Shown: positions 1 to 38,327, numbered from the stretch's first letter. The stretch: DNA of 64,000 nt from an uncultured Gammaproteobacteria bacterium (GCA_964507055.1 CAZDOJ010000001.1:1254758-1318757); one strand, 5' to 3'. The notes: generated by a model not told the origin, from the letters alone. Numbers and translations: made by a program.

Positions 1-3000
1 GCCATTGATTGCTGCATCTCCGGCTGAAGTGATGTTTCCTGTTGCTCCAGCAACAGAGAAGTTCGTACCAGCGATATCATTTGCACCAAGATCAATTGCA
101 GTGACGATATTTGCGTCAGACAAATCAATTGCTGTTGTAACGTCTCCGCCAGTAACTCCAGCGATTCGCAAACCAACTGGAAGTGCCTGATCAGCATCTT
201 GATTTTGGATCAAAACTAATTGTGCAGGATCATTTGCTCCAGCACCATCAGCTCGGAGGAATTGTGAACCACCAGTTGATCCAGTTGCTGTCGTGATGAC
301 GAAGTTTGCATCAGTTGATGTATCGGTGAGGTTGAATGCGATGTCTCGAGCGTTTGTTGTGTTAATTGTGTTGCCGCCGTTGTATGCACCTTGCAATGAA
401 ACTGATCCAGCTGAACATTTCGTTACGTTGTCAGAACCATCGATACAAAGAAGATTTCCTGTTGTTGTTGTTAATCCGGTGATAGTCAAGAATGAATCAG
501 AATCAGTGTTGATTGTGACATCATTGGTACTGTCAGGGGAGAAGGTTGAAATGCCGTTTGCAGTGAATGTTTGTCCTGATGGAACAGTTGCTCCGCCATT
601 AAATGTTGCCAGTCCTGTGACATTCAATGCGTTATTTACTGTTGTTGTTCCAGTTCCAGCTCCAATATTTACTGAAGTAGCAGCCCCACCAATATTCAAA
701 GTTGTTGCTGTTGTATTGATCAAGTTAAATGTTGAAGATCCAGTTGTTATGTCACCACCATTGACAGCAAGATCTGATGCAGCAGTGACATTACCAGTTA
801 ATGTCGAGATGCCATCAACGGTCAAAGTTCCGTTTGTTTGGATAGTGCCATTGTTAGCGATTGTTGCACCAGTTGATCCGTAACCGTCTCCGATGTTCAA
901 TGCATCAAAGTTTGCGGTTGCTTGTAATGCATTGATTGTTGTTGCATTTGGAAGAGAGAGTGTAGCGTTTCGGATAGTTGTTGTACCAGTTGTTGCACCA
1001 ATTGTGATTGCTGTTCCTGCACCACCGATATTCAATGCTGTAGCATCGGTATTGAAGACATTTGCAGTACCTGATGTTGTAGTGATGTCTCCACCATTGA
1101 TAGCGAGATCACCTGATGTTGTTATCTGACCAGTTGCTCCCGTGATACTGAGTTGTGTTCCGATGATGTCATTGTCGCCGAAGTCGATAGCGTTCACGAT
1201 GTTTGCATCGGAAAGATCAATTGCAGTAGTGATATCTCCGCCAGTAACTCCAGCGATTCGCAAACCAACTGGAAGTGCTCGGTCAGTGTCTTGGTTTTCG
1301 ATCAAGACTAATTGTGCAGGATCATTTGTACCAACACCATCTGCTCGGATGAATGCTGAGCCGCCAGTCGAACCAGTTGCAGTTGTGATAGTGAAATTAG
1401 CATCTGTTGTTGTGTTAGACAATGTGAATGCGATATCTCGTGCATCAGTTGTAGCGATTGTATTTCCGCCGTTGTATGCAGCTTGCAACGAGAATGTTGC
1501 ACCACCACATTTTGTGACATTGTCACTAGCATCGAGACAAAGTGTTGTCCCAGCAACACCTGGAGTTGTGAGTCCAGTCAATGTAAAGAATGAATCACTA
1601 TCAGTGTTAACAGTCACGCCATCTGTTCCAGTTGGTGAGAATGTAGATGCACCATTTGCATCAAATGTACTATTTGCAGTGAGTGCTCCACCAAATGTTC
1701 CTGTACCAAGTACATCCAAGTCATTGTTCACAGTCGTTGTACCGGTTGCTGCTCCGAGTGAGATAACTGTTGCATCTCCGCCGATGTTCACAGTTGTTGC
1801 ATTGGTGTTGAAGAGGGAAGCAGTCCCAGCAGTTGTTGTGATGTCTCCACCATTCAATGCCAAGTCACCACTTGATGTGATGTTGCCAGTCAATGTAGAA
1901 ATACCATCAACAGTCAAAGTGCCGTTTGCTGAGATGTTGCCAGCATTTGAAAGTGTAATTCCTGTATCTCCATAACCACCACCAACTTCGATTGCACTAA
2001 ATGTTGCAGCAGCATTTGGTGCATTGAAGGATGTAGCATTTGCGAAGTTGATTGTCGCATTTCGGATGTTTGCAGTACCGGTTGTTCCACCAAGTGTTAA
2101 TGATGTAGCAGCTCCACCGATATTCAATGTCGTTGCAGTACTGTTAAAGATGTTTGCACTTGATTGTGTTGTAGTGATATTACCACCATTCACTGCGATG
2201 TTACCACCAACAGTTGTGTTACCATTTGATCCATCAACTGAGAAGTTTGTACCAGTGATGTCATTTGCACCGAGTGCGATTGCAGTAACGATTGAAGCGT
2301 CTGAGACGTCAAGTGCAGTTGTGATGCCACCGCCACCAGTTGATGAAATTGTCAAACCGGTAGGGAGGATCTGATCAGAATCAGCATTATCGATCAAGAC
2401 TAATTGTGTTGGATCATTTGATCCGGCACCGTCAGCTCGGATGAATTGTGCACCGCCAGTTGAACCAGTTGCTGTCGTGACGATGAAGTTAGAATCAGTA
2501 GCATCATCAGCAAGTGTAAATGCGATGTTTCGACCACTTGTTGTCGTAATTGTGTTACCAGCATCATATGCAGCTTGGAGTGAGATTGAATTGTCTGCAC
2601 AAGTAACGACATTGTTACTGCCATCAACACAAAGGATAGTTCCCGCTGCAGTTGTTAATCCTGAAACATTTAAGAATGAATCAGCATCAGTTGTGATACT
2701 AACGCCATTTGTTCCTGAAGGATTAAATGTTGATTGACCATTTGCAGTGAAGTTAGCATTTGCTGTCGTGTTTCCCGTTATTGTTAATGCATTATTCACT
2801 GTGGTTGTTCCATTTCCGGCACCGATACTCAATGCTGTTGCTGCTGTTGCAAAGTTCACAGTTGTTGCATTTGCTGTTGCCAAATTGAAGGTTGGGGAAG
2901 TGGTGGTGAGATCTCCACCATTCAATGCCAAGTCGCCATTTGAAGTAATATTCCCAGTTAATGTAGAAATACCATCAACAGTTAATGTACCATTTGCTTG

Positions 3001-6000
3001 GATATTACCAGTGTTGGAAATACTGACACCAGTAGAACCATAACCGCCGCCAAGGTTTGCCGCATCAAGTGTTGCGAGTGCTCCTCCAGCATTAATAGCA
3101 GTCGCATTTGGAAGTGAGATTGTTTGGTTGTTAATTGCGATTGTTCCAGTACTTGCACCAAGATTGATTGTTGTTGCATCGCCACCGAGATTTAATGTTG
3201 TAACATTTGTGTTAAACAAGTTGCCGGTTGTTTGTGTTGTTGTAACGTCACCACCATTGACTGCGATATCACCTGATGTTGTGATATCTCCACTTGCACC
3301 AGTGATTGAGAAATTGGTAGCGATAACATTATTCGCACCAAGTGAGAGTGCATTAACGATTTCAGCATCGGAAAGATCAAGAGCATTAGTGATACCACCA
3401 GCAGCTGATTGGATCTTGATGCCAGCTGCAACGGCTCGATCTGTGTCCAAGTTATCAACCAAGATAAGTTGTGTTGGGTCAGATGTTCCAGCACCATTTG
3501 CTCGAGTGAATGATGTAAATCCAGTTGATCCATCAGCTGTTGTGATGGTGAAGTTCGCATCAGTTGCAGTATTTGCAAGGGTGAATGCGATGTCTCGTGC
3601 ATCAGTTGTAGCGATTGTATTTCCGCCAGTGTATGCGGATTGGAGTGATATAGCATCAGATGCACATTTGTTGATTTGGCCAGTACTATTATCGACACAA
3701 ACCAAAAGACCATTTGGTGCAGCATCAAGTCCAGTGACATAGAATCCAGAATCAGTATCAGTATTGATCGTCACAGTTCCTGTACCAGCTGGTGTGAATG
3801 TACTTGTGCCATTTGCAGTTAAGTCATTATCCACTGTCAATGAATTGTTGATTGTTGTGAGTCCTGTATCATCTCCGATACTGACAACAGTTGCATCGCC
3901 ACCGATGTTTACAGTTGTTGCATTGGTATTAAAGAGGGAAGCGATGCCGGATGTTGTTGTAGTAATATCTCCACCGTTCAAAGCCAAGTCTCCAGATGAA
4001 GTGATATCGCCAGTCAATGTTGATGTCCCATCGATGACAAGATTTCCATTCGCTGAAACATTTCCAGTATTTGTCACTGTCAAACCAGTTGATCCGAATC
4101 CATTGCCTACGTTCAATGCATCGAATGATGCTGTTGCTGCATTAGCATTCAATGTTGTTCCAAGGAGGGAAACAGTTGCGTTTCGGATTGTTGCTGTACC
4201 TGTTGTTGATCCAAGTGAAACAGTGGTTGCAGCATTTCCAATGTTAAGGGTTGTAGCATTTGCATTGAAGATGTTTGCAGTACCTGATGTTGTTGTGATG
4301 TCACCACCATTGACTGCAATATCTCCAGCAGAAGTAATATTTCCATTGCCACCATTTACAGAGAAGTTGGTGCCAGTGATATCATTTGCACCAAGTGCGA
4401 TTGCAGTAACGATAGACGCATCGGATACATCAAGAGCGGTTGTTAATCCGCCACCACCTGATGAGGAAATTCTGAGTCCAATTGGCAATGCTCGATCTGT
4501 GTCAGCATTATCGATGAGTACTAATTGTGATGGATCATTAGTTCCTGTCCCGTCAGCTCGGACAAAAACACTTCCAGCGGTTGAATCGTCAGCAGTTGTG
4601 ACGATGAATTGTGAATCGGTAGCGGTGTTTGCGAGCGTAAATGCGATGTCTCGATTGTTCGTCGTGTTGATTGTGTTTCCACCAACATATGCTGATTGAA
4701 GTGAAATAGCATCAGCTGCACACTTGGTAACCTGACTTGTGCCAGCATCAATACAAACGAGTGTACCTGAAGCGGTTGGCAAGCCTGTAACGAAGAGTGG
4801 TGAATCAGAATCAGTATTAAACGTGATTGCATTTGTTCCTGATGGATTGAAGAGGACACTACTGTTTGCTGTCAAATCACCTTCAACTGTAAGATCGTTG
4901 TTGACTGTTGTTAATCCAGTTGTATCACCGAGTGAGATAACCGTTGCATCGCCACCGATGTTCAAAGTCGTTGCATTGGTGTTGAAGAGGGAAGCAGTCC
5001 CAGCAGTTGTTGTGATGTCTCCACCATTCAATGCTAAGTCTCCAGCGGACGTTATGTCGCCAGTCAATGTTGATGTGCCATCGATGATCAAATTGCCGTT
5101 TGCTGAGAGGTTACCCGTGTTGGTGATACTAAGGCCAGTTGAACCGTAGCTTCCACCAATTGAAAGTGAGTCAAATGTAGCGAGTGCACTTGATGCAGTA
5201 AGAGCTGTTGCGTTAGGGAAATTAATAGTTGTACCACGTATGTTACCGGTTCCTGATGTTGCACCCAATGTGTAGGTTGTCGCAGCCCCACCGATGTTCA
5301 AAGTCGTTGCATTGGTATTGAAGATTGTTGCTGTACCAGTTGTTCCTGTTGTGATGTCATTACCATTCAATGCTAAGTCTCCGTTTGAAGTAATACTGCC
5401 GGTTGCTCCATCAACTGAGAAGTTAGTCCCAGCAATACTACTTACGCCAAGTGAAATACCGGTAACGATCGTTGGGTCAGAAAGATCAATACCAGTTGTG
5501 ATTCCGCCGCCGCCTGAAGAGGAGATCGTTAAACCAACTGGAAGTGCTCGATCAGTGTCAGCATTATCGATGAGAACGAGTTGTGTTGGGTCATTTGTGC
5601 CATTCCCATCTGCACGTTGGAAGATCGTTGAACCAGTTGAACCATCCGCTGTTGTGATGGTGAAGTTTGCATCGGTTGCTGTGTTCTCAAGTGAGAAAGC
5701 AATGTCTTTCGCATTGGTTGTGTCGATTGTATTACCACCATCATATGCTGATTGGAGGGAAATAGCGTTGGATGCACATTTGGTGATCTGATCTGTGCCA
5801 TTGTCGATACAAACCAAGTTACCTGTAGCTGTTGGAAGTCCAGTTACGTAAAGACCTGAATCGAGGTCAGTATTGATGATAACGTCGTTTGTTCCTGATG
5901 GAGTAAGGGTAGTTTGGCCATTTACAAGCAAGTTATCGGAAACAGTAAGGTTATTATTGATCGTTGTTGTACCTGTATTTGCTCCGATTGAAAGAGTTGT

Positions 6001-7400
6001 CGCAGCCCCAGCAAAGTTCACTGTTGCTGCCGTTGCATTGATCAAATTGAATGTTGGGGAAGTAGTAGTAAGATCTCCACCATTCAATGCCAAATCTCCA
6101 GCTGAAGTAATATTTCCTGTAAGTGTTGAAGATCCATCTATTGTGAGATTGCCGTTTGCTGAGATATCGCCAGTATTTGTGAGTGTTGTCCCTGTTGAAC
6201 CATAGCCATTACCGATTGTCACCGAATCAATAGTCAAAGCAGCAGCTCCAGCATCGATAGCTGTAGCATTTGGAAGTGAGAGTGTCGCATTGTTGATTGA
6301 TGCAGTACCAGTTGCAGCACCGAGAACAAGGGTTGTTGCAGCACCGCCGATGTTCAATGTGGTTACGTTTGTATTAAATAAGTTTCCTGATCCAGCAGTT
6401 GTTGTGACATCTCCACCATTAACTGCGATATCACCAGCTGAAGTGATATTGCCACTGCCACCTGCAACAGAGAAGTTCGTTCCTGAAAGATCATTTGCTC
6501 CGAATGAGAGAGCAGTAACGATAGTTGGATCTGATACATCAATTGCAGTTGTAACACCACTTGTTCCAGATGAAGTAATTCTCAAACCGATAGGGAGGAT
6601 TCGATCAGCATCAGCATTATCGATAAGGACCATTTGGTTTGGATCTGAAGCTCCAACGCCATCAGCTCGGATGAATTCGGTACCAGCAGTAGATCCTGTA
6701 GCGGTTGTGATGATGAATCGTGAATCAGTAGCAGTGTCGGCTAATGTGAATGAGATATCTCGTCCATCAGATGTTGTAATAGTATTTCCACCATCATAAG
6801 CAGACTGCAATGTTGAAGCTGATGGAGGACATTTAACTACGTTATCTCCAGCATCGACACAAAGTGAGTATGCAGATGAGACTGGGATTGTGAGTCCTGG
6901 CAAGTTAAGGAATGAGTCAGCATCTGAAACGATTGTTACACTGTCTGTTCCAGCAGGTTGGAGAAGGACAAGACCATTTGCTGTGAGTGAACCGTTTGCT
7001 GTTGTATTGCCAGTAATAGTCAAAGCATTGTTTACTGTCGTTGTACCTGATGCAGCTCCGAATGAAAGGGAAGTAGCAGCCCCACCAACATTTAATGTTG
7101 TAACGCCTGAGTTAAGGAGGTTGAATGTGCTTGTACCTGATGTTAATTCTCCGCCATTGATTGCTAAGTCTCCGCCAATAACACCATTATTGTTTATAGT
7201 TGTTGTTCCTGAACCTGCACCGATAGCGATACTTGTAGCAGCTCCACCTAAGTTAAGCGATGTTGCATTGGTGTTGAAGAGATTCACTGATGAAGCAGTT
7301 GTTGTAATGTCTCCTCCATTGACTGCGATACTGCCACCAAAGGTTGCAAGTCCAGTGCTATTGAATGAGAATGTCGGATTAGTTGTCATGTTACCAAAGC
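1..7400 (-). repeat. Tandem in-frame coding repeats inside the giant gene, period about 1,065 nt (about 355 aa), at least 7 copies. Near-identical DNA stretches of 60 nt or more recur between copies.
   Basis: Antisense peptide signatures recur with a fixed period: ...SPPFNAKSP...NVEIPSTVKVPFA at about 750, 1834, 2910, 3960, 5010 and 6075, and ...SPPLTAISP...TEKFVP at about 40, 1085, 2190, 3245, 4300, 5350 and 6410. A long nt block is shared between about 1783-1850 and 4954-5021. Confidence 0.75.
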
Positions 7401-10400
7401 TGATGTCTTGTGCTCCTGTTGTTGTGTTGATGGAGATATATTCGTTTGTACCTTGGCGGATTGAGAAGGCATCAGCAATGTTATTTACGATGTTATTGGT
7501 GATTGTGCCAGTGCCGTTAGCGGTAAGTGATATGTCAGTGCCATTGATGTTTACTAAGTCACCGCCATCTCCGAGGTTAGAGATGCCATTTGATGAGAAT
7601 GTACCGGTTACGACGAGGTCATTATTAACTGTCGTTGTACCTGATGATGAAGCGATTGAAACATCTGTTGCGTCGCCACCGATATTAAGTGTACTTACTC
7701 CAGAGTTGAAGACATTAGCAGTGGTTTGGTTTGTTGTGATAGAGCCTCCATTAACTGCGATGTTTCCATTGTTATCAACCACAAATGAATCAGCTCCAGC
7801 AGTCTGTAATTGGAGGAGGTTAGGTGTTGCAACTCCTGCTTCGTTGATGAAGAGAAGTGCTTGTGTACCAGTTGCGACTTGTGCAATTCGAGGTTGGATC
7901 AATGCAATCGTGCCACTGTTTGCCGGAAGGATGATCTGTTCATTCTGTGTTGCGTCTTCTCCAACGAGTTCGATTGTGTTTCCATCAACAGTTGTTCCTT
8001 GGAAGAAGAGGGAATTGCCTGCATCTGTTCCTGAGAACGCTGCACCAGTCAACACATTTCCAACGCTTGAGATATCACCAGCAACCAAGTTCGCATTCTT
8101 CCATTCGAGTAATCCGCCACTCTGGTATGTCAAAACATAGTCTGTTGAACCTGCATCGGACGGCAATGTATATACTATAGACGAATTCATTGAATCTGGA
8201 GCCTTAAATCCAGTATATTCAGTACCGTTTGCAGTCAATTCATAGAGTTGGAATTCCGATGTATTCCCAGCCCCAGCTCCGTATGGTTGGAGTTCAATTC
8301 CATTTGCTCCAGTAGGTGTAACTCGCAATGTATCGGTAACTGCGAGGAGGTTGTTCACAGTTGTTGTGCCTGTATTTGCACCAAGTGAGATAGCTGTTGC
8401 TACTCCGCCAAGATTGATTGTAGTAGCCGTGGTATCAAAGATGTTAGCAGTTGTTGCACTTGTTGTGATAGTTCCACTTCCAAGATTGAGTGATCCTGTT
8501 CCGAGGAAGTTAAATGCAGGATTTGTAGCGGCATTACCAAATGCTATATTCTCAGCACCATTGGTTGTATTGATGTTGAAGTAATTATTAACACCTTCTT
8601 GAATATCAAATGCATCTGCAGCGTTGTCTGAAAGGTTTGCTGTAATGGTTGAGCCATTCAATGTCAAAGCATTGCCAGTATTGCCAGCGGTGAATGATCC
8701 AGCTGATGCGAGTGTTGTATTGCCAGATGATGAAAGAGTAGTGAAGGCAGCAGTTGCTGGTGTTGTCGTGCCAATTGCTGTTCCGTTGATTCCAGTTGCT
8801 GTGACATTGAAGGTAGCTGAAGTTATCAACAAGTTATTCACACCAGCGTCAATTGTGGATGCTGAGAGTCCAGAGAGGTTCAAAGCACCTGATGTTGCAG
8901 TTAAGTTAAGTGCTCCAGTTGTCTGAGTAAAGCCATTTGAGGCTGTGAGTAATCCAGCAGAAGTGATAGCTCCAGTGCCAGTTGTTGTTATGTTTCCTGA
9001 TGTGGTGAGGTTCCCATCTTCATCGATAAACAATGTTTCAAGGCCACCCGATTGGATAGAGATAGCATTATTTGTCCCCGTATTGGTATCGTTGATAACC
9101 AATGTGTCTGCTGATCCTTCGTTGGTCAAAGTGAATGATGTAGCAGTTCCAGCATCTGATGTTTCATCGTAGAGTGTGAATGCGATGTCTCGGCCATCTG
9201 TTGTGGTGATTGTATTACCAGTGTTGTATGCAGCTTGCAAACCAAATGGAGCACCGTTACAAAGTGCGAGGTTGTTACTGCCATCAATACAAAGTGCATT
9301 TCCTGCAGTTGTTTGGAGACCATTGAATTGAACGGTTGAGTCAACATCTGTATTGAAGACAACATCATTTGTTCCTGATGGAGTGAATGTCGCAGAGCCA
9401 CTAGCATTGAATGCTTGTCCGTTGCTAACTGTTGCACCGCCATTGAATGTAGCGAGGCTTGCAACATCAAGTGTAGAGTTAAAGTTCGCGGCACCAGTTA
9501 CTCCGAGTGATCCGCCAAGCGTTGTTGCTCCAGTTCCGACTGAGAAGGTGTTTGCACCAGTGACTGCAGTGTTCCCGTTCAAACTCACATTGCCAGTTCC
9601 TGTAGAGAGAGTGCCGGTTCCTGTTTGTGCGATGTTGTTGTTAAATGTCGCAATGCCTGTAACTCCAAGTGTTCCGCCAAGTGTTGTAGCTCCTGTTCCA
9701 ACGGTGAAGGTATTCGCACCTGTAACTGCGGTTGCTCCATTGAGTGAAACAGATCCAGTACCTGTTGAGAATGTTCCAGCACCTGATTGGGTGAAGTTGC
9801 CAGCAGTATTCAAGTTGGCATTTGCATTTACATCACCTGTGAATGCAGCAGCACCTGTTCCGAGGAACGAGTAGGTTGGGTTGGTTGTACCATTTCCAAA
9901 TGAGATATTCTCAGCACCATTGGTTGTATTGATGTTGAAGTAGTTGTTCGCACCTTCTTGAATGTCGAGTGCATTTGCTGCATTGTCTGTGAGGTTTGCG
10001 GTGATAGTTGAGCCATTCAATGTCAACGCTCCAGCAGTATTGCCAGCGGTGAATGTACCGGTTGTTGCAAGTGTTGTGTTACCACTTGATGTCAAAGTAG
10101 TGAATGCAGCAGTCGATGGGGTAGTAGTGCCAATTGCAGTACCATTTATGCCTGTTGCAGTCGTATTAAAGTTGCCTGATGTGATTATGATGTTATTAAC
10201 GCCAGCATCAATTGTTGAAGCTGAGAGTCCAGAGAGATTCAACGCACCTGAGGTTGCAGTCAAGTTAAGTGCACCTGTTGTTTGTGTGAAGCCATTTGAA
10301 GCTGTTAAGAGTCCCGCAGATGTGATTGTACCAGTGCCCGTTGTTGCGATGTTACCTGATGTCGATAATGTACCAAACTCATTAATGGTTAAAGTAGTTG

Positions 10401-13400
10401 ATCCATTATTTTGAATGGCAAGGGAAGTTCCAGTTCCTGCATTGGTGTCATTGATAACAAAAGCTGGAGCTGTTCCTTGATTCTCAAGAGTAAATGAAGT
10501 GTCAGTTGTCACATCAGCCAATGTGAATGAGATGTTTCGTGCATCCGTCGTAACAATTGTGTTGCCAGTGTTGTATGCAGCCTGCAAACCGAATGGAGCA
10601 CCGTTACAAAGAACCAAGTTGTTCCCACCATCAATACAAAGAGCATTTCCAGCTGTTGTACCGAGGCCGTTAAATTGAACAGTTGAATCAGTATCTGTGT
10701 TGAAGACAACATCATTTGTGCCACTTGGAGCGAATGTTGCTGAGCCACTTGCGTTGAATGATTGACCTGATGGAACGAGTACACCACCATTGAAGGTCGC
10801 AAGCCCTGCTACATCAAGTGTAGAGTTAAGATTTGTCGTACCTGTCACACTAAGTGTTCCCCCGAGTGTAGTTGCTCCAGTTCCAACGGTGAAGGTATTC
10901 GCACCTGATACTGCTGTTGCACCGTTCAATGTAACTGAACCAGTTCCTGTAGAGAAGGTTGTAGCACCTGATTGTGTGAAGTTACCATTTGCTACGATTG
11001 CTCCACCGAAGGTTGCGGTTCCAGTAGTGACTGTAAATGCATTTGAAGCAGTAAGCAATCCAGCAGAAGTGATAGCTCCAGTGCCAGTTGTACTGATATT
11101 ACCTTGTGTGGAGAGAGTACCATTCTCATTGATGGTCAAAGTAGTTGCTCCATTATTTCGGATATCAATTGCTGTTCCTGTTGCTCCGTTCGTATTATCG
11201 AGAACGAATGCACTTGCTGTACCAGCATTGGTGAGTGAGAATGAAGCATCAGTAGCGGTGTCTGCGAGTGTGAATGCGATATCTCGGCCATCAGTTGTGG
11301 TGATTGTATTGCCAGCGTTGTATGCCTGTTGCAATGTGACGTTCAATGCATTTGATGAACAGACAGCGAGTTGGTTATCTCCATTTCGGCAAACAACTGT
11401 ACTTCCCACATTTCCTGAAAGAGTAGGAACTCGGACTAAATCATTAAGAATGATTTCGCCTGATCCACTTGCCTCAACAGTAAGGTCCTGATTATTTCCT
11501 GTAGTGATATCCAAGGCTGCATCATCAAAAATTAGTCCTGTAGTTCCAATAGTCTTACTATTCAATGTCTGAGCTTGATTCGCAAAGACAAATGTATCAT
11601 CTGCACTCAAGGCTGGAATGGTAGCTGTGCGAGGAGCAGAAGAAGCGATTGATGAAATCGTAGTTGTATTGGTCAAACCGAGAACAATTTGATTTGTTGT
11701 CGCTTCAGAGGTGAGAGTGCCAGCTGTCACCAAGTTACCGTTTTCGCCAATTGTCAGTCTATTCGTGCCATTTGATTGGATAGCCAAAGCTGTGCCGTTA
11801 CTACCATTGCCAGCATTGGTGTCATTGATGACAAATGCATTTGCTGAGCCTTGATTCTCAAGAGAGAATGAAGAATCTATGCCTGTATCACTGAGTACGA
11901 ATGAAACATTTCGGCCATCAGTCGTTGTTATAGTATTGCCAGCATCATACGCCTGTTGAAGCGTTACATTAAGAGCATTTGAGGAACAGACAGAGAGTTG
12001 GTTATCATCGTTTCTGCAAACAACAATATCTCCGACAGTATTGGAGAGGTTCGTAACTTGGACGAGATCACTAAGGATAAGCTGGCCTGTTCCATTTGCA
12101 TCGATGGTGAGGTCTTGATTAGTTCCCGAAGTAATGTCAGTTGAAACGCTATTGAAAGTAAAGGTGCCAGTAGTTGTGATCGCTCCTGAAGAGATTGTTG
12201 TAGCTCCTGAGATTGCTCCAGCGTTGGTGATACCGCCAATATTGTTATCGATACCTCCAGTGATGTTTGCTCCGCCTGCTGCGACAGTTACGCCACCAGC
12301 TGTGATACTCAATCCGCCAGTACTGATGGTCTGCCCTGCAGTAAAGACATTTGCTTGATTGAGGTAGGCGACATTGTTGAGTGTTCCAGCTGTATTGATA
12401 TTTGCACCGTTTAGTTGGATAGCACCTGTCGCATTAAGATTGCCAGCTTGGATCGTACCTGAAGCTGTAAGGTCAGTGATTCCTGTTATTTGACCTGCAT
12501 TGGTGATTCCTCCATTGCTGTTATCAAGGCCGCCACTGATAGTTGCTCCATTAGTTACATTTAATCCGTTTGAAGCAGAGAGGAGGCCAGCAGAAGTAAT
12601 GGTTCCTGTGCCGGTTGTTGCAATATTACCTGAAGTTGAGATATTGCTGATAGAGATAATGGCTCCATCTTCAGTAATTCGTAATGTTTCTGATCCATTT
12701 GATTGGATGATCAATGCATTATTTGCTGCAGCGTTTGTATCGTTGATTATGACACCTGCTCCTGTGCCTGTATTGGTTAAATTAAGTCCTGTAGCATTAC
12801 CATTATTGACTAGATTAAATGATGTTGGTGTGGTTAATCCACCAGTTAAATTGAAGAATATACCTCGACCATCAGATGTGTCTATAGTATTTCCTGCATC
12901 GTACGCTTGTTGTAATGTGACCTCAGCAGCATTGGCTGGACACTGTACTAATTGGTTGGTTACATCGTCTCGGCAGATTGTTGTAGCAGAGTTTACTGTT
13001 GTGTTAAGTACTGAAAGCTGAGTCATCTTACCGAGAATGATTTCACCAGTTCCATTAGGTGAGAGAGTGAGGTTTTGATTTGTTCCAGTTGTTATTGCTG
13101 ATGAAACGCCACTTAATATAACATTGCCTGAAGTTGTAACAGAACCAGATGATATCGTTCCTGCGGTGATAAGGTTTCCATTTTCATTAACAGTAAGTGT
13201 GGAAGTGCCACCTGATTGGATATCTAAAGCAAGTTGATTAGCAGCATTGGTATCGTTGATGACAAACGCACCATTACCAGTTCCTGCGTTGGTGAGTGTG
13301 AATTGTGCTGAAGATCCGTTTGCCAAATTGAATTCGATATCTCCATACGTATTATCTGCATCAATCGTATTGCCAGCTTGATAAGCTTGTTGCAAGTCAA

Positions 13401-16400
13401 CATTTGCAGCATTGGCAGGACACTGAATTAATTGATTTGTTATATTGTCTCGGCAAACGGTTGTTGCTCCATTAAGACTTGTGTTGAGCGTTGTTAATTG
13501 GAGTGGACCAGCCAATGTGAATTGTCCTGAGTTACTGAGACTTGCAACTTCGGTACCAGATGTATTTTGGAATGAAAGTTCGTACGAAGGCCCAGTTCCT
13601 GTAACTTGATTTTGGAGACTGAAGCCTACATTGGTTGATGAACTGCCATTCCAGTATGCTCCTTGGAATGTTACAAGGTTTGAATTCTGTGTTTGTGTTC
13701 CGACTGTTGCATTACCAACGCGATTCAATGTAAGTGTATCTGTTCCTGATTGATCTCCGATTTCAACTCCTGAGAGAGCACCGATAACTGTTCCGTTGTC
13801 GGTAAGGTTTGAATCAGCGATATTTGAAGCAAGTCCTGGATCGATGAATCGAGCAAGTCTGTATTGATTACCTTGGCCCCCAACAACGCCACCTGTACCG
13901 GCACAGTTACCTGAAGTAACACAGATAGCACCATCTGCGTCAGGAATCGTTAGCACTCGAGTCGTACCAGTTGCTATCTGACTTGCATCAAAGATAAACC
14001 GCTTTGTGACATCTGTGTCATCGACGAAGTAGGTTGTTAGATCAGTCAAAGACTTGTTGCTGAGTGTCTGTGCTTGGTTTTGGAAAACGAATGTATCATT
14101 GCCTGTAAGAGCCGGTAGTGTTGCAGTTCGTGGGGCAGATGGAGCAATTGAATTGATTGTAGTTGTATTTCCTGTGCCGAGAACCAATTGATTTGATGTA
14201 GCGAGAGAGGCGAGTGAGCCGTTTTCACTGATGGTTAATGTATTTACGCCACCTGATTGGATAGCCAATGCAATATTTGTTCCAGCATTGGTATCGTTGA
14301 TAACAAACGCACTGTCAGTGCCTTGGTTGGTGAGTCGGAATGAAGCATCATCTGTCAAAGTGTCTGCAAGTGTGAATGAAATATCCCGAGCATCAGTTGT
14401 GAGGATGGTATTGCCAGAATCATACGCTTGTTGCAATGTTACGGCTGCAGCATTAGCAGGGCACTGTACGAGTTGATTTGTTACATTATCTCGGCAAATT
14501 GTGGTTGCGGAGTTGAGCGTCGTATTGAGAACTGAAAGTTGTGTCGCACTGCCAAGCACAATATTTCCTGAGCCAGCTGAAAGGGTGAGTGCTTCATTTC
14601 CTGTTGTTGCAATATCAGTCGCTGCTCCTGTAAAGAGTAATCCAGAGGAACCGATCGTCTTATTTGTCAGTGTTTGTGCCTGGTTTTCAAAGACGATAGT
14701 ATCATTTGCACTCAGTGCTGGAATGCTTACGATTCTCTGAGCAGCTTGAGCGTTAGCATTAAATACTACGTTATTGCCAGTTGGTCCAAGTGAGAGCTGA
14801 TTGTTGCTGTTTGAGAGGCTCGCTGTTGGGGCATGGACTTCACCTGCACAATCAAGGTTTCCGCTTGCATTGAAAACTGTACAACCTGTTGCAGCTGAAC
14901 CACCAGCTAAAGCTATATCACCAGAGCTATTTATTGAAAGTTCAGTTGTCCCTTGTGTTTCATTAACTAAATTGAGAGTACTGCCATCTACTAATATTGC
15001 AAAATCCTGCTCGCCTCCAACACCGCCAGTGGTATCCACGAATCGTAGAGAAGGATCTGAATTTTCAATTGTGATATCTCCATCAGAGGTTGCCGCACCA
15101 GAGAGGTAAAGGTTTCGGAAACGCTTATTAGCAGAACCAAGATCGTATACAGCATCTGCGGAAGGACCAATATTGCCACCTACTTCAACCAAAAAATTCT
15201 CCAGAGGATCTGGAGTTGTCCCTATGCCAACTTTACTGTTGGGAATCAGTAGGTTCCCCGCATTATCGGCGGTTATGGTCGGATCGGGCGAACCATTTCC
15301 AGCAGAGTAGAGTGTTAGACTGCCATTTGTTCCTCCTGTTCCAGTGTTGTTTGTTCCAAGAGCGAGGTTCGCTGTTGCTGCATTGAAGAAGAGCGTTGCG
15401 TTGCCAACTGTTCCGTTACCTCCAAGAATGAAATCATTAGCAGTTGAAGTAGGGCGGATGAAGTCACCGTAGGTTGCATCGTTATCAACGATGAATGGAG
15501 TAACGCCAGCAGAAGTGATTGCATTGTCGAGATCTTCCAAAACTGCTTGTAAATTAGTTGAACTTGCATTTGCAAGACTGTCATATACACCAACTAAGTT
15601 TGCACCTGATGTGTTTGCATCAGTACCTTCTGCATCAAGGGCAATTGATGACCAAGCAGGAAGCCCGTTTACTACCTGAAGGATCTTTCCATCTGTATCA
15701 CCGATTGGAAGTGCGTCTAATTCGTTACTCCCTGAAGCGAAAAGTAAGTCCCCTGTATTATATGAAGTAAGTCCTGTACCTCCGTTAGCAACTGATACTG
15801 AGCCATTGATAGCTCCAGCATCAACTGAGCCTCCAGGACCGACAGTTATATTATTTGATACAGCAACATCTGTGATACAAGACGCACAAGTTCCACGAGC
15901 TACAACATCTCCTAACGTAGAAATATCACTAATTGTCAGTCCATCTATAGCTATACCATCACCAGGTTGGAGTTCGATTTCACCTGTTTCACCTTGGAAA
16001 GCTGTCACAGTTTCAGGGGATGGAGGAATTTCAACTGAGATTGTAGGATTCTGTTCGTCACCTGAAAGAACGACATTGTCTCCAGCCACAATACTGTAGA
16101 GGATATTTGGTGCTGTTAGATCACCGGTAAACGTACCTGTTCCACCGACTTCAAGATTTTTGTCGATAGAAGTATTTCCGTTGACTTCAAGGTCTTTTTT
16201 CACTGAAACATTTTCCTTGAAGATGACTGGCAAGGCGAAGGTTACATTTCCCGCAAGCCTCACTTTACTGGTTTCTGCAGCTAATACTTCTCCATCTTGA
16301 GCCGAAGTAGTCCTGTAGTCAGATGTCTCGAAGAGAAATTTGAACTTATCTTGTTGATTTATGACCACAACACCTAGAACCAAAAGAATCGTTGTAGTAA

Positions 16401-16848
16401 TTGCAAGTGTTTTTGTTGAAGGAATTCTGAATTTGAAGGTAAGGGAGTCTGTGATTTGAGCCTTGATATGATCCTTGATGAAATCATCTTCGTAGAAACC
16501 GTTTCCGATCCAATTCACTAGCCTTCGGTAAAAATCTGCTTTCGCAATGTTATCCGGAAGGGTAGAAGGCTCAGATGCGATCTTTGCCAATTCAGACGCC
16601 GTCTGCCCTGACGGAGTATCTGTGGCATTAATCACTTCACCTTGTGCAGCAACGCTTGTTGCTTTCTGGATCTCGAGAAAATTCTCAAGCTGTTCTTCGG
16701 TGTACCCAATCTGCCCATCATGGGTAATCGTAGGCTTGAGGATGTGCAATTGGTTCCATTTGAGCAGCGTGTCAGTAGAGACTGCTAGTCTTTTAGCAGC
16801 CTCTTGAAGTGTTAGTAATTTTGGAGTTTTTGGATGGGCAGAATCCAT
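1..16848 (-). CDS. Giant membrane-anchored repetitive surface protein, 5' partial. It has an N-terminal cytoplasmic excisionase/MerR-like HTH, one TM helix and an extracellular region of more than 5,400 aa made of tandem repeats. It runs off the window start, so the true length is unknown.
   Basis: ATG at 16848-16846 on the minus strand. I translated frame 0 by hand to nt 1 with no stop: 16848/3 = 5616 codons exactly, and the final codon GGC occupies nt 3-1. N-terminus MDSAHPKTPKLLTLQEAAKRLAVSTDTLLKWNQLHILKP is an HTH_17/Xis-like pattern. TM segment TLAITTTILLVLGVVVI. After that come Gly/Thr/Asn/Ala-rich repeats with the recurring motif LC[IV]DxxxNxx[TK]C...SLQxAYxGGNTI. Every minus-strand ORF in the track for 1-16.8 kb sits in a single other frame, as expected if frame 0 is open throughout. 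Confidence 0.8.
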   Translation of the reverse strand, partial: MDSAHPKTPKLLTLQEAAKRLAVSTDTLLKWNQLHILKPTITHDGQIGYTEEQLENFLEIQKATSVAAQGEVINATDTPSGQTASELAKIASEPSTLPDNIAKADFYRRLVNWIGNGFYEDDFIKDHIKAQITDSLTFKFRIPSTKTLAITTTILLVLGVVVINQQDKFKFLFETSDYRTTSAQDGEVLAAETSKVRLAGNVTFALPVIFKENVSVKKDLEVNGNTSIDKNLEVGGTGTFTGDLTAPNILYSIVAGDNVVLSGDEQNPTISVEIPPSPETVTAFQGETGEIELQPGDGIAIDGLTISDISTLGDVVARGTCASCITDVAVSNNITVGPGGSVDAGAINGSVSVANGGTGLTSYNTGDLLFASGSNELDALPIGDTDGKILQVVNGLPAWSSIALDAEGTDANTSGANLVGVYDSLANASSTNLQAVLEDLDNAITSAGVTPFIVDNDATYGDFIRPTSTANDFILGGNGTVGNATLFFNAATANLALGTNNTGTGGTNGSLTLYSAGNGSPDPTITADNAGNLLIPNSKVGIGTTPDPLENFLVEVGGNIGPSADAVYDLGSANKRFRNLYLSGAATSDGDITIENSDPSLRFVDTTGGVGGEQDFAILVDGSTLNLVNETQGTTELSINSSGDIALAGGSAATGCTVFNASGNLDCAGEVHAPTASLSNSNNQLSLGPTGNNVVFNANAQAAQRIVSIPALSANDTIVFENQAQTLTNKTIGSSGLLFTGAATDIATTGNEALTLSAGSGNIVLGSATQLSVLNTTLNSATTICRDNVTNQLVQCPANAAAVTLQQAYDSGNTILTTDARDISFTLADTLTDDASFRLTNQGTDSAFVINDTNAGTNIALAIQSGGVNTLTISENGSLASLATSNQLVLGTGNTTTINSIAPSAPRTATLPALTGNDTFVFQNQAQTLSNKSLTDLTTYFVDDTDVTKRFIFDASQIATGTTRVLTIPDADGAICVTSGNCAGTGGVVGGQGNQYRLARFIDPGLASNIADSNLTDNGTVIGALSGVEIGDQSGTDTLTLNRVGNATVGTQTQNSNLVTFQGAYWNGSSSTNVGFSLQNQVTGTGPSYELSFQNTSGTEVASLSNSGQFTLAGPLQLTTLNTSLNGATTVCRDNITNQLIQCPANAANVDLQQAYQAGNTIDADNTYGDIEFNLANGSSAQFTLTNAGTGNGAFVINDTNAANQLALDIQSGGTSTLTVNENGNLITAGTISSGSVTTSGNVILSGVSSAITTGTNQNLTLSPNGTGEIILGKMTQLSVLNTTVNSATTICRDDVTNQLVQCPANAAEVTLQQAYDAGNTIDTSDGRGIFFNLTGGLTTPTSFNLVNNGNATGLNLTNTGTGAGVIINDTNAAANNALIIQSNGSETLRITEDGAIISISNISTSGNIATTGTGTITSAGLLSASNGLNVTNGATISGGLDNSNGGITNAGQITGITDLTASGTIQAGNLNATGAIQLNGANINTAGTLNNVAYLNQANVFTAGQTISTGGLSITAGGVTVAAGGANITGGIDNNIGGITNAGAISGATTISSGAITTTGTFTFNSVSTDITSGTNQDLTIDANGTGQLILSDLVQVTNLSNTVGDIVVCRNDDNQLSVCSSNALNVTLQQAYDAGNTITTTDGRNVSFVLSDTGIDSSFSLENQGSANAFVINDTNAGNGSNGTALAIQSNGTNRLTIGENGNLVTAGTLTSEATTNQIVLGLTNTTTISSIASSAPRTATIPALSADDTFVFANQAQTLNSKTIGTTGLIFDDAALDITTGNNQDLTVEASGSGEIILNDLVRVPTLSGNVGSTVVCRNGDNQLAVCSSNALNVTLQQAYNAGNTITTTDGRDIAFTLADTATDASFSLTNAGTASAFVLDNTNGATGTAIDIRNNGATTLTINENGTLSTQGNISTTGTGAITSAGLLTASNAFTVTTGTATFGGAIVANGNFTQSGATTFSTGTGSVTLNGATAVSGANTFTVGTGATTLGGTLSVTGTTNLNSTLDVAGLATFNGGVLVPSGQSFNASGSATFAPSGTNDVVFNTDTDSTVQFNGLGTTAGNALCIDGGNNLVLCNGAPFGLQAAYNTGNTIVTTDARNISFTLADVTTDTSFTLENQGTAPAFVINDTNAGTGTSLAIQNNGSTTLTINEFGTLSTSGNIATTGTGTITSAGLLTASNGFTQTTGALNLTATSGALNLSGLSASTIDAGVNNIIITSGNFNTTATGINGTAIGTTTPSTAAFTTLTSSGNTTLATTGTFTAGNTAGALTLNGSTITANLTDNAANALDIQEGANNYFNINTTNGAENISFGNGTTNPTYSFLGTGAAAFTGDVNANANLNTAGNFTQSGAGTFSTGTGSVSLNGATAVTGANTFTVGTGATTLGGTLGVTGIATFNNNIAQTGTGTLSTGTGNVSLNGNTAVTGANTFSVGTGATTLGGSLGVTGAANFNSTLDVASLATFNGGATVSNGQAFNASGSATFTPSGTNDVVFNTDVDSTVQFNGLQTTAGNALCIDGSNNLALCNGAPFGLQAAYNTGNTITTTDGRDIAFTLYDETSDAGTATSFTLTNEGSADTLVINDTNTGTNNAISIQSGGLETLFIDEDGNLTTSGNITTTGTGAITSAGLLTASNGFTQTTGALNLTATSGALNLSGLSASTIDAGVNNLLITSATFNVTATGINGTAIGTTTPATAAFTTLSSSGNTTLASAGSFTAGNTGNALTLNGSTITANLSDNAADAFDIQEGVNNYFNINTTNGAENIAFGNAATNPAFNFLGTGSLNLGSGTITTSATTANIFDTTATTINLGGVATAISLGANTGTTTVNNLLAVTDTLRVTPTGANGIELQPYGAGAGNTSEFQLYELTANGTEYTGFKAPDSMNSSIVYTLPSDAGSTDYVLTYQSGGLLEWKNANLVAGDISSVGNVLTGAAFSGTDAGNSLFFQGTTVDGNTIELVGEDATQNEQIILPANSGTIALIQPRIAQVATGTQALLFINEAGVATPNLLQLQTAGADSFVVDNNGNIAVNGGSITTNQTTANVFNSGVSTLNIGGDATDVSIASSSGTTTVNNDLVVTGTFSSNGISNLGDGGDLVNINGTDISLTANGTGTITNNIVNNIADAFSIRQGTNEYISINTTTGAQDISFGNMTTNPTFSFNSTGLATFGGSIAVNGGDITTTASSVNLFNTNATSLNLGGAATSIAIGAGSGTTTINNNGVIGGDLAINGGELTSGTSTFNLLNSGVTTLNVGGAATSLSFGAASGTTTVNNALTITGNTTANGSLTANGLVLLQPAGTDSVTIVSDADSFLNLPGLTIPVSSAYSLCVDAGDNVVKCPPSASTLQSAYDGGNTITTSDGRDISFTLADTATDSRFIITTATGSTAGTEFIRADGVGASDPNQMVLIDNADADRILPIGLRITSSGTSGVTTAIDVSDPTIVTALSFGANDLSGTNFSVAGGSGNITSAGDIAVNGGDVTTTAGSGNLFNTNVTTLNIGGAATTLVLGAATGTASINNATLSLPNATAIDAGAAALTIDSVTIGNGYGSTGTTLTNTGDISANGNLTIDGSSTLTGNITSAGDLALNGGDLTTTSPTFNLINATAATVNFAGAATTLSIGANTGTTTINNNLTVSDNLLVNGQTTLTPSGTNDVIINTDLDSGLYVTGLPTATGNLVCIDNGTDQITKCASNAISLQSAYDGGNTIDTTNAKDIAFSLENTATDANFTITTADGSTGSTIFQRADGNGTNDPTQLVLIDNADTDRALPVGLTISSSGGGGITTGIDLSDPTIVTGISLGVSSIAGTNFSVDGATGSITSNGDLALNGNDITTGTTGTATIFNTNATTLNIGGAATTYTLGATSGTGNIRGTTINFPNATALTASSALATFDSLSIGGSYGSTGLSITNTGNLSANGNLIIDGTSTLTGDITSAGDLALNGGDITTTAGTASLFNTNATTLNIGGDATVISLGDTTGLTTVNNDLTVEGDLTANSSVLFNPSGTNAITFNTDSDSPLFVTGLPTASGTLVCIDAGTSQVTKCAADAISLQSAYVGGNTINTTNNRDIAFTLANTATDSQFIVTTADDSTAGSVFVRADGTGTNDPSQLVLIDNADTDRALPIGLRISSSGGGGLTTALDVSDASIVTAIALGANDITGTNFSVNGGNGNITSAGDIAVNGGDITTTSGTANIFNANATTLNIGNAATTVSLGSTTGTATIRNATVSLLGTTLNANAATASFDALNVGNGFGSTGLTVTNTGNVSANGNLVIDGTSTLTGDITSSGDLALNGGDITTTTSGIASLFNTNATTVNIGGDATVVSIGDDTGLTTINNSLTVDNDLTANGTSTFTPAGTGTVTINTDTDSGFYVTGLDAAPNGLLVCVDNSTGQINKCASDAISLQSAYTGGNTIATTDARDIAFTLANTATDANFTITTADGSTGFTSFTRANGAGTSDPTQLILVDNLDTDRAVAAGIKIQSAAGGITNALDLSDAEIVNALSLGANNVIATNFSITGASGDITTSGDIAVNGGDVTTTQTTGNLFNTNVTTLNLGGDATTINLGASTGTIAINNQTISLPNATAINAGGALATLDAANLGGGYGSTGVSISNTGNIQANGTLTVDGISTLTGNITSNGDLALNGGDLTTTSPTFNLATANATTVNFATAATALSIGAGNGTTTVNNALTITGNTTANANFTANGQSTFNPSGTNGVSITTDADSFLNVSGLTTAAGTILCVDGSNNVVTCADNSISLQAAYDAGNTITTTSGRNIAFTLADDATDSNFIVTTATGSTGGAQFIRADGAGSNDPTQLVLIDNADSDQILPTGLTISSTGGGGITTALDVSDASIVTAIALGANDITGTNFSVDGSNGNTTVGGNIAVNGGNITTTQSSANIFNSTATTLNIGGAATSLTLGGTTGTANIRNATINFANATSFNAPNAAATFSAIEVGGGYGDTGITLSNAGNISANGTLTVDGISTLTGNITSSGDLALNGGDITTTAGTASLFNTNATTVNIGGDATVISLGAATGTTTVNNDLDVLGTGTFGGALTANSTFDANGASTFSPTGTDGVTVNTDSDSFFTLTGLTTPGVAGTTLCLDASDNVTKCGGATFSLQAAYNGGNTIATTDARDIAFTLSNTTTDANFTITTATGSTGGSAFIRADGVGTNDPAQLVLIENQDTDRALPVGLRIAGVTGGDITTAIDLSDANIVNAIDFGDNDIIGTQLSITGATGQITTSGDLAINGGDITTTSGTANVFNTDATALNIGGAGTAITIGATTGTTTIRNATLSLPNATTINALQATANFDALNIGDGYGSTGATIANNGTIQTNGTLTVDGISTLTGNVTAASDLAVNGGDITTGSSTFNLINTTATTLNIGGAATSVNIGAGTGTTTVNNALNVTGLATFNGGATVPSGQTFTANGISTFSPDSTNDVTINTDSDSFLTITGLTTTTGNLLCIDGSDNVTKCSAGSVSLQGAYNGGNTINTTNARDIAFNLTDTSTDANFVITTATGSTGGSQFLRADGAGANDPAQLVLIQNQDADQALPVGLRIAGVTGGDVTTAIDLSDANIVTAIDLGANDIAGTNFSVAGATGNITSAGDAAING
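8300..11450 (-). repeat. A second, more divergent tandem repeat family in the giant gene, period about 1.37-1.45 kb, at least 2 copies.
   Basis: The antisense ORFs 8624..8926 and 9962..10414 are clearly homologous (...VEPFNVKALPVLPAVN.../...VEPFNVNAPAVLPAVN...; ...TPASIVDAESPERFKAPDVAVKLSAPVV...). 9353-9874 and 10790-11491 are likewise homologous. Confidence 0.6.
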
Positions 16849-18248: not shown

Positions 18249-18560
18249 TTATTGTTTTTGAGGTTTTGATTGCGATTTTGAAGATGGATCAATCTCTTCA
18301 AGAAGGAGTGTCTCGATACCCAAGAAAATATGTACTTCATCTTTTTTTACCTTCATTACCGCCTGTTCAATCTTTAACTCTTTAATCTTCTGCTTATTGT
18401 GATAAAGATCGAGCTGCGTATGAATAATAGATATGAAGTTGGCATGCATAGGGTAGACATCGAACTTTCCAACCTCATTAAAAGAGGTTATACGCTCGGC
18501 TTCGCCTTCATAAATGGTATTTTCAGTATCTTCTACAATGACTTTAAGTAGAGTGGCCAT
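18249..18560 (-). CDS. atpC: F0F1 ATP synthase subunit epsilon
   Basis: 103 aa, lies directly downstream of beta. MATLLKVIVEDTENTIYEGEAERITSFNEVGKFDVYPMHANFISII is the characteristic epsilon beta-sandwich N-terminus. Confidence 0.75.
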   Translation of the reverse strand: MATLLKVIVEDTENTIYEGEAERITSFNEVGKFDVYPMHANFISIIHTQLDLYHNKQKIKELKIEQAVMKVKKDEVHIFLGIETLLLEEIDPSSKSQSKPQKQ

Positions 18561-38252: not shown

Positions 38253-38327
38253 ATAGCAGCAGAACTTCTTTATTCTTTTCTTGTACAAATTTTTCGAAGG
38301 AAATTGTAGCTTTCGTGGTACTTTCTG

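Follow-up and report, generated by a model that had tools for sequence, protein, structure and literature searches.

A recurring cysteine-pair module in giant proteins of Patescibacteria and its possible role in a surface fibre

Introduction

Why would a single bacterial protein carry the same closely spaced pair of cysteines again and again over thousands of residues? The question is raised by a stretch of DNA of 64,000 nucleotides, here called the window, that is recorded under an uncultured Gammaproteobacteria bacterium (GCA_964507055.1, CAZDOJ010000001.1:1254758-1318757). Its left part belongs to a giant gene on the minus strand, whose product repeats a module of ~145 amino acids comprising C-x9/10-C, then LQxAYxxGNTI, and then RDIxFTL. 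An earlier note on this DNA had described at least 11 copies of the motif, and had taken them to define a new repeat domain in which the conserved residues form either a structural disulfide hairpin or a ligand-binding site.

Judged by its sequence, the module represents a domain family not described so far, which belongs to a broader and known kind: the repeat modules of giant bacterial surface proteins. Drawing on sequence comparisons and structure models, we lean, with slightly better than even confidence, towards reading the module as a disulfide-stapled junction or cap element of a long, N-terminally anchored surface fibre made by Levybacteria-like Patescibacteria.

The module and its cysteine pairs

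A regular expression (C-x(9-10)-C ... LQxAYxxGNTI ... [RK][DNG][IV]xFxL) finds 14 copies of the module, and a profile hidden Markov model (HMM) built from these copies recovers these and no others above noise, with scores of 145-192 bits. The shorter pattern [LIVM]Q.[AGS][YF] likewise occurs 14 times in the 5,637 amino acids of the frame, exclusively within modules. The motif recurs where the earlier note had placed it (the 14 copies lie at ~14.4-14.5, 13.4, 12.9-13.0, 11.9-12.0, 11.3-11.4, 10.6, 9.2-9.3, 6.8, 5.8, 4.7, 3.7, 2.6, 1.5 and 0.4 kb), but the count rises from at least 11 to 14, all of them on the minus strand and in one giant open reading frame (ORF). This frame is free of stop codons from nucleotide 16911 to nucleotide 1, has its first ATG at 16848, and runs past the left edge of the window. 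The window thus holds the 5′ part of the gene (1..16848, minus strand), encoding at least 5,616 amino acids, and the 3′ end lies beyond it. Residues are numbered here from nucleotide 16,911 (amino acid 1), such that the first Met is amino acid 22 and 5,637 amino acids are counted overall.

The copies fall into two subtypes. Modules 1 through 5 (all modules are on the minus strand) belong to subtype B and lie at 14194..14604 (Cys 806/817, x10, HMM score 155 bits), 13147..13566 (Cys 1153/1164, x10, 146 bits), 12634..13086 (Cys 1313/1324, x10, 145 bits), 11707..12126 (Cys 1632/1642, x9, 163 bits) and 11086..11499 (Cys 1841/1851, x9, 163 bits). Modules 6 (10339..10758, Cys 2092/2102, x9, 167 bits) and 7 (8980..9411, Cys 2541/2551, x9, 159 bits) combine a subtype B tail with an LCID-type hairpin. 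The remaining seven are of subtype A, beginning with module 8, the first of seven regular units (6544..6984, Cys 3351/3361, x9, 178 bits, also placed by the unit alignment). It is followed by module 9 (5494..5925, Cys 3701/3712, x10, 192 bits), module 10 (4435..4872, Cys 4053/4064, x10, 190 bits), module 11 (3385..3819, Cys 4405/4416, x10, 166 bits), module 12 (2314..2751, Cys 4761/4771, x9, 184 bits), module 13 (1222..1662, Cys 5125/5135, x9, 183 bits), which is the copy modelled below, and module 14 (130..567, Cys 5489/5499, x9, 185 bits).

Alignment of the copies reveals 13 invariant columns (C, C, L, Q, A, Y, G, N, T, I, F, L and F). Both cysteines, whose conservation the earlier note had asserted, are invariant in 14 of 14 copies, with a spacing of x9 in eight modules and of x10 in six. 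Pairing extends to every cysteine of the protein: 34 of 34 have a partner within 11 residues, whereas 20,000 random placements gave 4.1 on average and never more than 18. Fourteen of these pairs are inside modules and three are outside. One of the three is a C-x5-C pair, 'ICVTSGNC' (TIPDADGAICVTSGNCAG; amino acids 997/1003, 13903..13923, minus strand), a hairpin variant that stands without an LQxAY core; homologues carry the same C-x5-C form (TLPDxxGTxCLTSGNCSG) directly before LQxAY, x5 occurring in 31 instances. The others are a C-x10-C pair (amino acids 677/688, 14848..14883, minus strand) and a CxxC pair in the membrane-proximal unique region (amino acids 342/345, 15877..15888, minus strand).

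The seven C-terminal modules are 350-364 amino acids apart, which corresponds to 1,050-1,092 nucleotides and agrees with the period of about 1,065 nucleotides reported earlier. A repeat search at the DNA level gives a period of 1,053-1,092 nucleotides with 60-77% identity; Tandem Repeats Finder found no repeat because this period exceeds its 500-nucleotide limit. The seven N-terminal modules, at 8.98-14.6 kb, are spaced by 160-810 amino acids. Two further claims of the earlier note need revision. The copies that it called older and more divergent instead form a distinct subtype, which must be regarded as maintained rather than decaying because it is conserved in an orthologue (83% amino acid identity over 1,136 amino acids of the subtype B region) and is present in many other proteins. 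The claim that only the motif residues are conserved also does not hold among close units, where the whole 355-residue unit is conserved. Specifically, the module core is 89% identical between close orthologues and the rest 87%, and in 110 units from five related giants conservation is fairly even along the whole unit. The core stands out only when subtypes and the wider family are compared.

Architecture and predicted topology

The order of parts along the protein can be read directly from the sequence. Near the N terminus is a MerR-type helix-turn-helix (HTH) domain (16660..16812, minus strand) that is predicted to be cytoplasmic. Its Pfam MerR_1 score is marginal (22.9 bits against a cut-off of 21.6), and HTH_17 and phrog_66 (excisionase/regulator) also match, but module-bearing homologues match MerR clearly (P0055 at 43 bits; P0097 at 80 bits with two copies). 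A single transmembrane helix of the signal-anchor type, TKTLAITTTILLVLGVVVIN, follows at amino acids 166-187 (16351..16416, minus strand), and is the sole 19-residue window with a Kyte-Doolittle value above 1.6 in 5,637 amino acids. Because this one helix comes after a cytoplasmic HTH and all modules are beyond it, all modules are predicted to be extracytoplasmic. Module-bearing giants repeatedly have the combination of a MerR-type HTH and a single transmembrane helix as their N-terminal anchor (P0055, P0097, P0030, P0033, P0038, P0109, P0146 and P0159), and other homologues begin with different short cytoplasmic tails and one transmembrane helix.

Beyond the helix are a membrane-proximal unique region (amino acids 188-770), the subtype B stretch with its seven modules (770-2,650), a segment of sub-repeats only ('NGGxITT...LNIGGxAT'; 2,650-3,300) and the seven regular units of ~355 amino acids (3,310-5,637), all on the minus strand. 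The tail of subtype B modules reads FxLTNxGTAxAFVINDTNA...LxIQSxG..LTIxExGxL, and that of subtype A modules FxITTAxGSTG..FxRADGxGTNDPxQLVLIDNxDTDRALP.... Each regular unit consists of a subtype A module and two sub-repeats of ~50 amino acids ('NGGDITT...LNIGGxAT'). The giant protein is rich in T (17%), G (13%), A (11%) and N (11%) and poor in C (0.6%), His (0.1%), K (0.7%) and E (1.3%). Domains cross-linked by Thr-Gln ester or Lys-Asn isopeptide bonds were considered and ruled out by composition, given the lack of a conserved His and the low K (0.7%) and E (1.3%).

The module belongs to no family in the libraries that we searched. Neither Pfam nor NCBIfam gives a match at E ≤1 over any module when five protein segments are scanned, and when 71 diverse module sequences are scanned one by one, any given family matches two of them at most (best E = 3e-4). 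PDB sequence profiles yield nothing for the module (best E = 2.4 and 0.12). Matches to PHROG profiles fall outside the module, where phrog_4527 'short tail fiber' (E = 1.5e-9) and also phrog_6002 match the sub-repeat part. The earlier proposal of a new repeat domain thus holds for Pfam, NCBIfam, PHROG, PDB and BFVD, none of which matches over the module, and the literature searched contains no description of the module or of Levybacteria giant genes.

The cysteine pair across relatives

An exhaustive profile search of 1.84 billion proteins returned 295 cluster representatives at E ≤1e-3 and 163 at E ≤1e-10, many of them 1,000-4,861 amino acids long with one to seven modules each, and a separate homologue search gave only 28 short fragments. 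The HMM search of proteins that the earlier note had called for therefore establishes that the module is not particular to the gene in the window. Its relatives in databases are unnamed or called 'hypothetical protein'. A genome scan added 65 loci, whose titles name Levybacteria/Levyibacteriota, Saccharibacteria, Doudnabacteria, 'Patescibacteria group' and, in many cases, 'uncultured Gammaproteobacteria'. The giant gene and its ATP synthase neighbours match metagenome-assembled genomes (MAGs) of Levyibacteriota, a lineage within the Patescibacteria group (locus L036 at 75% nucleotide identity). Because of this match we doubt the Gammaproteobacteria label, and titles of this kind (e.g. OZ246394.1, CAYPEN010000001.1, CAZMSF..., CAYTCO...) are probably wrong, being mislabels or placeholders. 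Read in this way, the sequences place the module in a small family that is nearly confined to giant proteins of Patescibacteria.

The genes that carry the module can be far longer than the part seen in the window. After overlapping loci of the same contig were merged, stop-free frames that are still open at both ends, and whose lengths are therefore lower bounds, reach at least 16,850 amino acids in CAYPEN010000001.1 (330477-381028, five loci), at least 15,865 in CAZHDZ010000002.1 (three loci, spanning a 580-N gap), at least 13,704 in OZ246394.1 (1298846-1339959, three loci) and at least 13,508 in JBPOIT010000009.1 (three loci). These four frames contain 29-33 modules and 60-70 cysteines each, and a single such gene accounts for over 3% of a genome of 1.6 Mb. 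By comparison, the window probably holds at most the first third of a gene longer than 40 kb. Some relatives are interrupted. CAVRKE010000002.1 (386866-419606, three merged loci) has two ORFs of 5,217 and 5,285 amino acids that are separated by an apparent frameshift inside a module, reflecting either an assembly error or a real disruption, and many database matches (P0009, P0016-P0018) finish in out-of-frame tails.

Cysteines were counted on the raw sequence in the 32 residues before LQ of 524 unique modules. Two cysteines are present in 507 of these, none in 12, one in four and three in one, and three of the four modules with one cysteine are at evident sites of frameshift or truncation. Pairing is complete in the giant frames of the four relatives, where 64 of 64, 70 of 70, 60 of 60 and 68 of 68 cysteines are paired; five giants, amounting to ~65,000 amino acids, contain no unpaired cysteine. 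The spacing is x9 in 325 modules, x10 in 94, x5 in 31 and x8 in 17, with a range of x5-x20 and a mode of x9. Such variation in loop length fits a disulfide-closed loop and not a fixed metal site. Several of the 12 modules that lack cysteines (Saccharibacteria loci L056, L059, L063 and L064; P0117) bear an aromatic (Trp/Tyr-rich), hairpin-like sequence of the aromatic-zipper type, 'GYGQIYxWNGSxWILGASGGG', at the position of the hairpin. The replacement of the cysteine hairpin by this aromatic 'IYxWNGSxWIL' segment indicates that the hairpin is the conserved element.

Raw alignment of 190 unique instances gives conservation values of 99% for L, 98% for Q, 99% for Y, 97% for G, 93% for N and 93% for I, together with 88% for the first cysteine and 92% for the second; most apparent exceptions at the cysteines are pairs that are shifted in the alignment. 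R and D of LQxAYxxGNTI..TD.RD are conserved at 76% and 70% in the family alignment.

Among 2.9 million viral contigs of IMG/VR, only three weak loci carry the core, in the form LQxAYxxG[NS]TI..D[IL]xFTL, and all three are without the cysteine pair (L066, 759-5861; L067, 4416-7535; L068, 4923-5621). In the protein of L067, the core is located downstream of an N terminus that matches phrog_2647 'head decoration' (E = 1.4e-14).

Purifying selection appears to act on the repeat region as a whole. The window is collinear over 7.6 kb, at ~82% nucleotide identity, with OZ246394.1, a chromosome of 1.61 Mb, and the giant protein is 87% identical to its orthologue there over 2,640 amino acids. Differences from this orthologue number 303, 163 and 1008 at codon positions 1, 2 and 3, respectively, and the differing codons comprise 832 synonymous and 330 non-synonymous changes. 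It is this excess of third-position and synonymous changes that indicates purifying selection across the whole repeat region.

Predicted structure of the module

Two independent AlphaFold2 (AF2) runs place the two cysteines on a β-hairpin that is followed by helices over LQxAY. The model of a whole unit (amino acids 5,075-5,499; 42-sequence alignment) has a mean predicted local distance difference test (pLDDT) score of 67, with 72-87 over the module, and predicts strands in the sub-repeats downstream of the module. The model of the module alone (mc763be09e3f2; amino acids 5,085-5,310; 982-1659 of the window, minus strand; 71 sequences) reaches a mean pLDDT of 84.5 and a predicted template modelling score of 0.68. 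Its hairpin strands are residues 40-42 and 48-50, with cysteines at 41 and 51, and short helices span residues 53-63 over LQxAY.

Fold searches were negative. Foldseek against the PDB returns no match at E ≤10 for the module model, and only non-significant β-helix proteins for the whole-unit model (best E = 2). The search of BFVD gives only non-significant models resembling tail fibres (best E = 2.5, TM-score ≤0.32). A right-handed parallel β-helix with an N-terminal helix cap, as one specific fold, is supported neither by intrachain ladders in residues 64-226 of the module model nor by a significant Foldseek match. Mean-field direct coupling analysis (of 414 and then 229 modules) yielded mostly gap artefacts and had too much noise to inform on the fold, although a few couplings appear at separations of 13-14 and 42-43.

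A proposed role for the module and its alternatives

The suggestion that the cysteine pair is a structural hairpin staple gains support from four sides: the cysteines are kept or lost as a pair (507/12/4 of 524), they are predicted to be on a β-hairpin, they are predicted to be extracytoplasmic, and the window itself encodes a membrane-anchored, DsbA-like thiol:disulfide oxidoreductase. This 325-residue protein (57688-58665, minus strand) has a CPFC active site, matches Pfam Thioredoxin_4 (E = 6e-37) and DSBA (E = 1e-20), and has one hydrophobic stretch followed by FSDFQCPFCKRY. It is a plausible candidate, as far as its sequence goes, for the extracytoplasmic oxidase of the module cysteines; with its gene 41 kb away, it provides same-genome support and not linkage.

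If the staple reading is correct, Sec would export the giant chain behind its signal-anchor, and each cysteine pair would be oxidized by a DsbA-like enzyme outside the cytoplasm. A β-hairpin closed by an intrachain C-x9/10-C disulfide would then stand at the start of each module; next, LQxAY as a short amphipathic helix and GNTI as a turn would lead to ~100-150 residues of short strands rich in T, D and N; in the regular units, two sub-repeats of ~50 amino acids would finish the unit of ~355. Together, the locked hairpin and helix would form a covalent staple, repeated periodically, that caps β-rich segments or starts them anew, keeps similar neighbouring units in register, and stiffens the fibre. 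We infer the disulfide bond itself, the capping or registration role, and an adhesin role. The whole protein would most probably be a long-reach surface tether or adhesin, as its architecture suggests, and as might be expected from cultivated Patescibacteria, which are epibionts that need adhesins (PMC10633639).

Several observations weigh against this reading. Conservation of the LQxAYxxGNxI core, which includes the polar residues Q, Y, N, R and D, reaches 93-99%, above the 88-92% of the cysteines, so the essential role may reside in the core, possibly in ligand or ion binding. Because modules without cysteines exist, the disulfide must be dispensable for the fold, and both points together make the predicted disulfide an accessory to the core. 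In the hairpin of the module model, DSSP assigns an offset register in which cysteines 41 and 51 are not directly opposite one another on strands 40-42 and 48-50. Moreover, ~150 residues after the helix have pLDDT values of 85-93 and yet contain no DSSP helix or strand (residues 64-226 of the module model). With no strands after the helix, the picture of a β-solenoid cap is not confirmed, and the fold searches of PDB and BFVD support no specific fold. To judge from the models, this region is either irregular or one chain of an intertwined oligomer.

An intertwined oligomer is the basis of the alternative that survives best, although we give it only a minor share of our confidence. The protein might be a homotrimeric fibre of the tail-fibre or triple β-helix type, in which the module is a registration or 'neck' element and the cysteines form interchain knots or lock hairpins around the axis. 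Such a trimer would account for the high-pLDDT residues without intrachain β-ladders in both AF2 monomer models, as expected for one chain of an intertwined oligomer. It is also in line with the nearest BFVD neighbours, which are monomer models of tail fibres (none significant), with the matches of the sub-repeat part to phrog_4527 and phrog_6002, and with the cysteine-less core that follows a phage head-decoration-like domain in L067. On the other hand, no fold match is significant (best E >2, TM-score ≤0.32), the core has just three weak matches in 2.9 million viral contigs, and scans of Pfam and NCBIfam detect no coiled coil or known trimerisation domain. A close C-x9/10-C pair on a predicted hairpin is also more simply explained by an intrachain bond.

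The module could instead be a repeated binding site for a glycan or Ca2+, making the fibre a multivalent adhesin in which the disulfide only shapes a loop. We regard this as unlikely, even though the near-invariance of polar residues family-wide (Q 98%, Y 99%, N 93%, R 76% and D 70%) and the need of epibiotic Patescibacteria for adhesins (PMC10633639) would suit it, and the D/N-rich sequences NTDxDS and DNxDTDR may, by analogy, resemble calcium-binding loops. The conserved polar residues could equally form a buried hydrogen-bond network at a cap, and no lectin or Ca-binding family in the libraries searched is similar to the module. The hairpin loop has no excess of substitutions between orthologues, which argues against a variable binding loop, and the core has no diversifying signal either. 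Finally, for adhesins that bind with their tip, it would be unusual to carry one and the same site at least 14-33 times along the shaft.

More speculative, and in our estimate improbable, is a further reading, in which the gene family encodes proteins that rank among the largest of Patescibacteria (16,850 amino acids or more) and that, if β-solenoid-like, would form fibres hundreds of nanometres long, with a cytoplasmic, MerR-type DNA-binding domain as their tether. Disulfide-locked hairpins might act as folding or translocation ratchets, or as interchain trimer knots, that enable export and mechanical integrity, and the HTH domain might couple pulling or host contact to DNA or transcription. 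The giant proteins would then constitute an undescribed surface organelle of episymbiotic bacteria.

Disulfides are less to be expected in anoxic habitats, in which many Patescibacteria live. This circumstance, along with the conservation of the paired cysteines and the CxxC near the membrane (amino acids 342/345), could point to metal-binding or redox-active sites, either as ligands of Zn or Fe or as a thiol-disulfide switch. We consider such a role very improbable. Each module offers two cysteines, and given the scarcity of His (0.1%) and the absence of additional Cys, a single chain is unlikely to form a metal site; the loop length varies from x5 to x20, an aromatic hairpin substitutes for the cysteines in some variants, and DsbA-like machinery is encoded.

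Least credible of all is that the gene is non-functional, as an assembly artefact of the repeat or a decaying pseudogene: the window edge does cut the gene and database relatives are often broken up by frameshifts, but the frame is stop-free over 16.9 kb, its units share only 55-77% identity, which makes collapse or mis-assembly unlikely, it is collinear with a complete chromosome at 82% nucleotide identity, and it differs from the orthologue mainly at third codon positions.

Patescibacteria account for a large share of bacterial diversity, but their cell-surface biology has hardly been annotated. The module profile offers a searchable signature for giant HTH-anchored fibre proteins, which are now fragmented by gene callers and assemblers and labelled 'hypothetical'. 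If the DsbA-backed periodic staple is real, the assembly of very long appendages in these organisms would depend on extracytoplasmic oxidative folding. At ~145-355 amino acids, the unit is of a size that can be expressed and solved, and its predicted fold has no match among the PDB chains searched by Foldseek.

Genomic context

Upstream of the giant gene, and on the same strand, is an F-type ATP synthase operon, whose epsilon gene (18249-18560, minus strand) is on the 5′ side of the giant gene. Between the two is a 1.4 kb AT-rich stretch (16850-18250; GC ~36%) with no ORF of 50 amino acids or more, which presumably holds the promoter and leader of the giant gene. The window ends with a tRNA-Ala gene and the start of a 23S rRNA gene, and these, together with the ATP synthase neighbours, mark the locus as chromosomal.

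Opposite the giant gene, the plus strand (293-15109) contains only broken ORFs of 100-416 amino acids. In its frame 2, 69 of 5,500 codons are stops, of all three kinds, each being the complement of a sense codon (TCA in 45 cases, CTA in 16 and TTA in 8). Plus-strand ORFs were rejected as genes, since this frame is the exact codon complement of the giant gene and the ORFs are antisense artefacts. Stop-codon reassignment, repeat-induced-point-like (RIP-like) mutation and a pseudogene were likewise dropped as explanations for the plus-strand stops, the minus-strand frame being fully open.

Elsewhere in the window are genes for a CAP-domain secreted protein (24600-25373), MsrB (33438-33983) and thioredoxin reductase (61930-62856). 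A tyrosine recombinase gene (37392-38252) adjoins tRNA-Ile(TAT) (38327-38400), and a RadC-like gene (39053-39853) is flanked by divergent tRNA-Met genes at 39860-39929 (minus strand) and 39996-40070 (plus strand). The gene for a Fic-domain protein (51899-52939) overlaps the start of that for an ATP-dependent DNA ligase of the archaeal/eukaryotic type (52884-54707).

Comparison with known systems

The giant protein joins several kinds of long or repetitive protein that it resembles in part. Like the β-helix or β-solenoid adhesins (the two-partner secretion (TPS) domains of FHA and HMW1, and pertactin-type passengers), it is very long, predicted to be extracellular, rich in T, G, N, A and S, and apparently built of short strands. 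Its sub-repeats are predicted as stacked strands, the helix that precedes strands resembles an N-terminal cap, and the top PDB neighbours of the whole-unit model, although non-significant, include the HMW1 secretion domain and an ice-binding protein. It differs from these adhesins in that no sequence or fold match is significant, the module region is without DSSP β-ladders, and the chain begins with a transmembrane helix and a cytoplasmic HTH rather than with TPS, autotransporter or LPXTG elements. One disulfide hairpin per unit is also not a feature of β-solenoid adhesin families.

Phage tail fibres and tailspikes, which are intertwined trimers, share with it the tail-fibre profiles of PHROG that match the sub-repeats and a monomer model without intrachain ladders, and the LQxAY core recurs in three putative viral proteins, in one of them behind a head-decoration-like domain. 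Unlike the protein described here, the viral versions are without the cysteine hairpin, are confined to three weak loci in IMG/VR, and have no significant counterpart in BFVD. Moreover, our protein is chromosomal, predicted to be membrane-anchored, and encoded beside the ATP synthase operon.

Bacterial thrombospondin type 3 repeats are 15-25 amino acids long, D/N-rich and extracytoplasmic, with an intra-repeat disulfide. The common ground is one cysteine pair per extracytoplasmic, D/N-rich repeat and a disulfide that would shape a loop. The module is distinguished from them by its length of ~145 rather than 15-25 amino acids and by the lack of sequence similarity, as no Pfam match was found.

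A parallel in scale is offered by the giant genes of Omnitrophota. [quoted passage not shown] Both sets comprise enormous and largely unannotated genes in small-celled, probably host-dependent bacteria, and attachment has been suggested for the Omnitrophota proteins as well. The protein described here departs from that plan, in that the 5,616 amino acids encoded in the window contain one transmembrane helix and a MerR-type HTH, and no match to SecA or DEAD domains.

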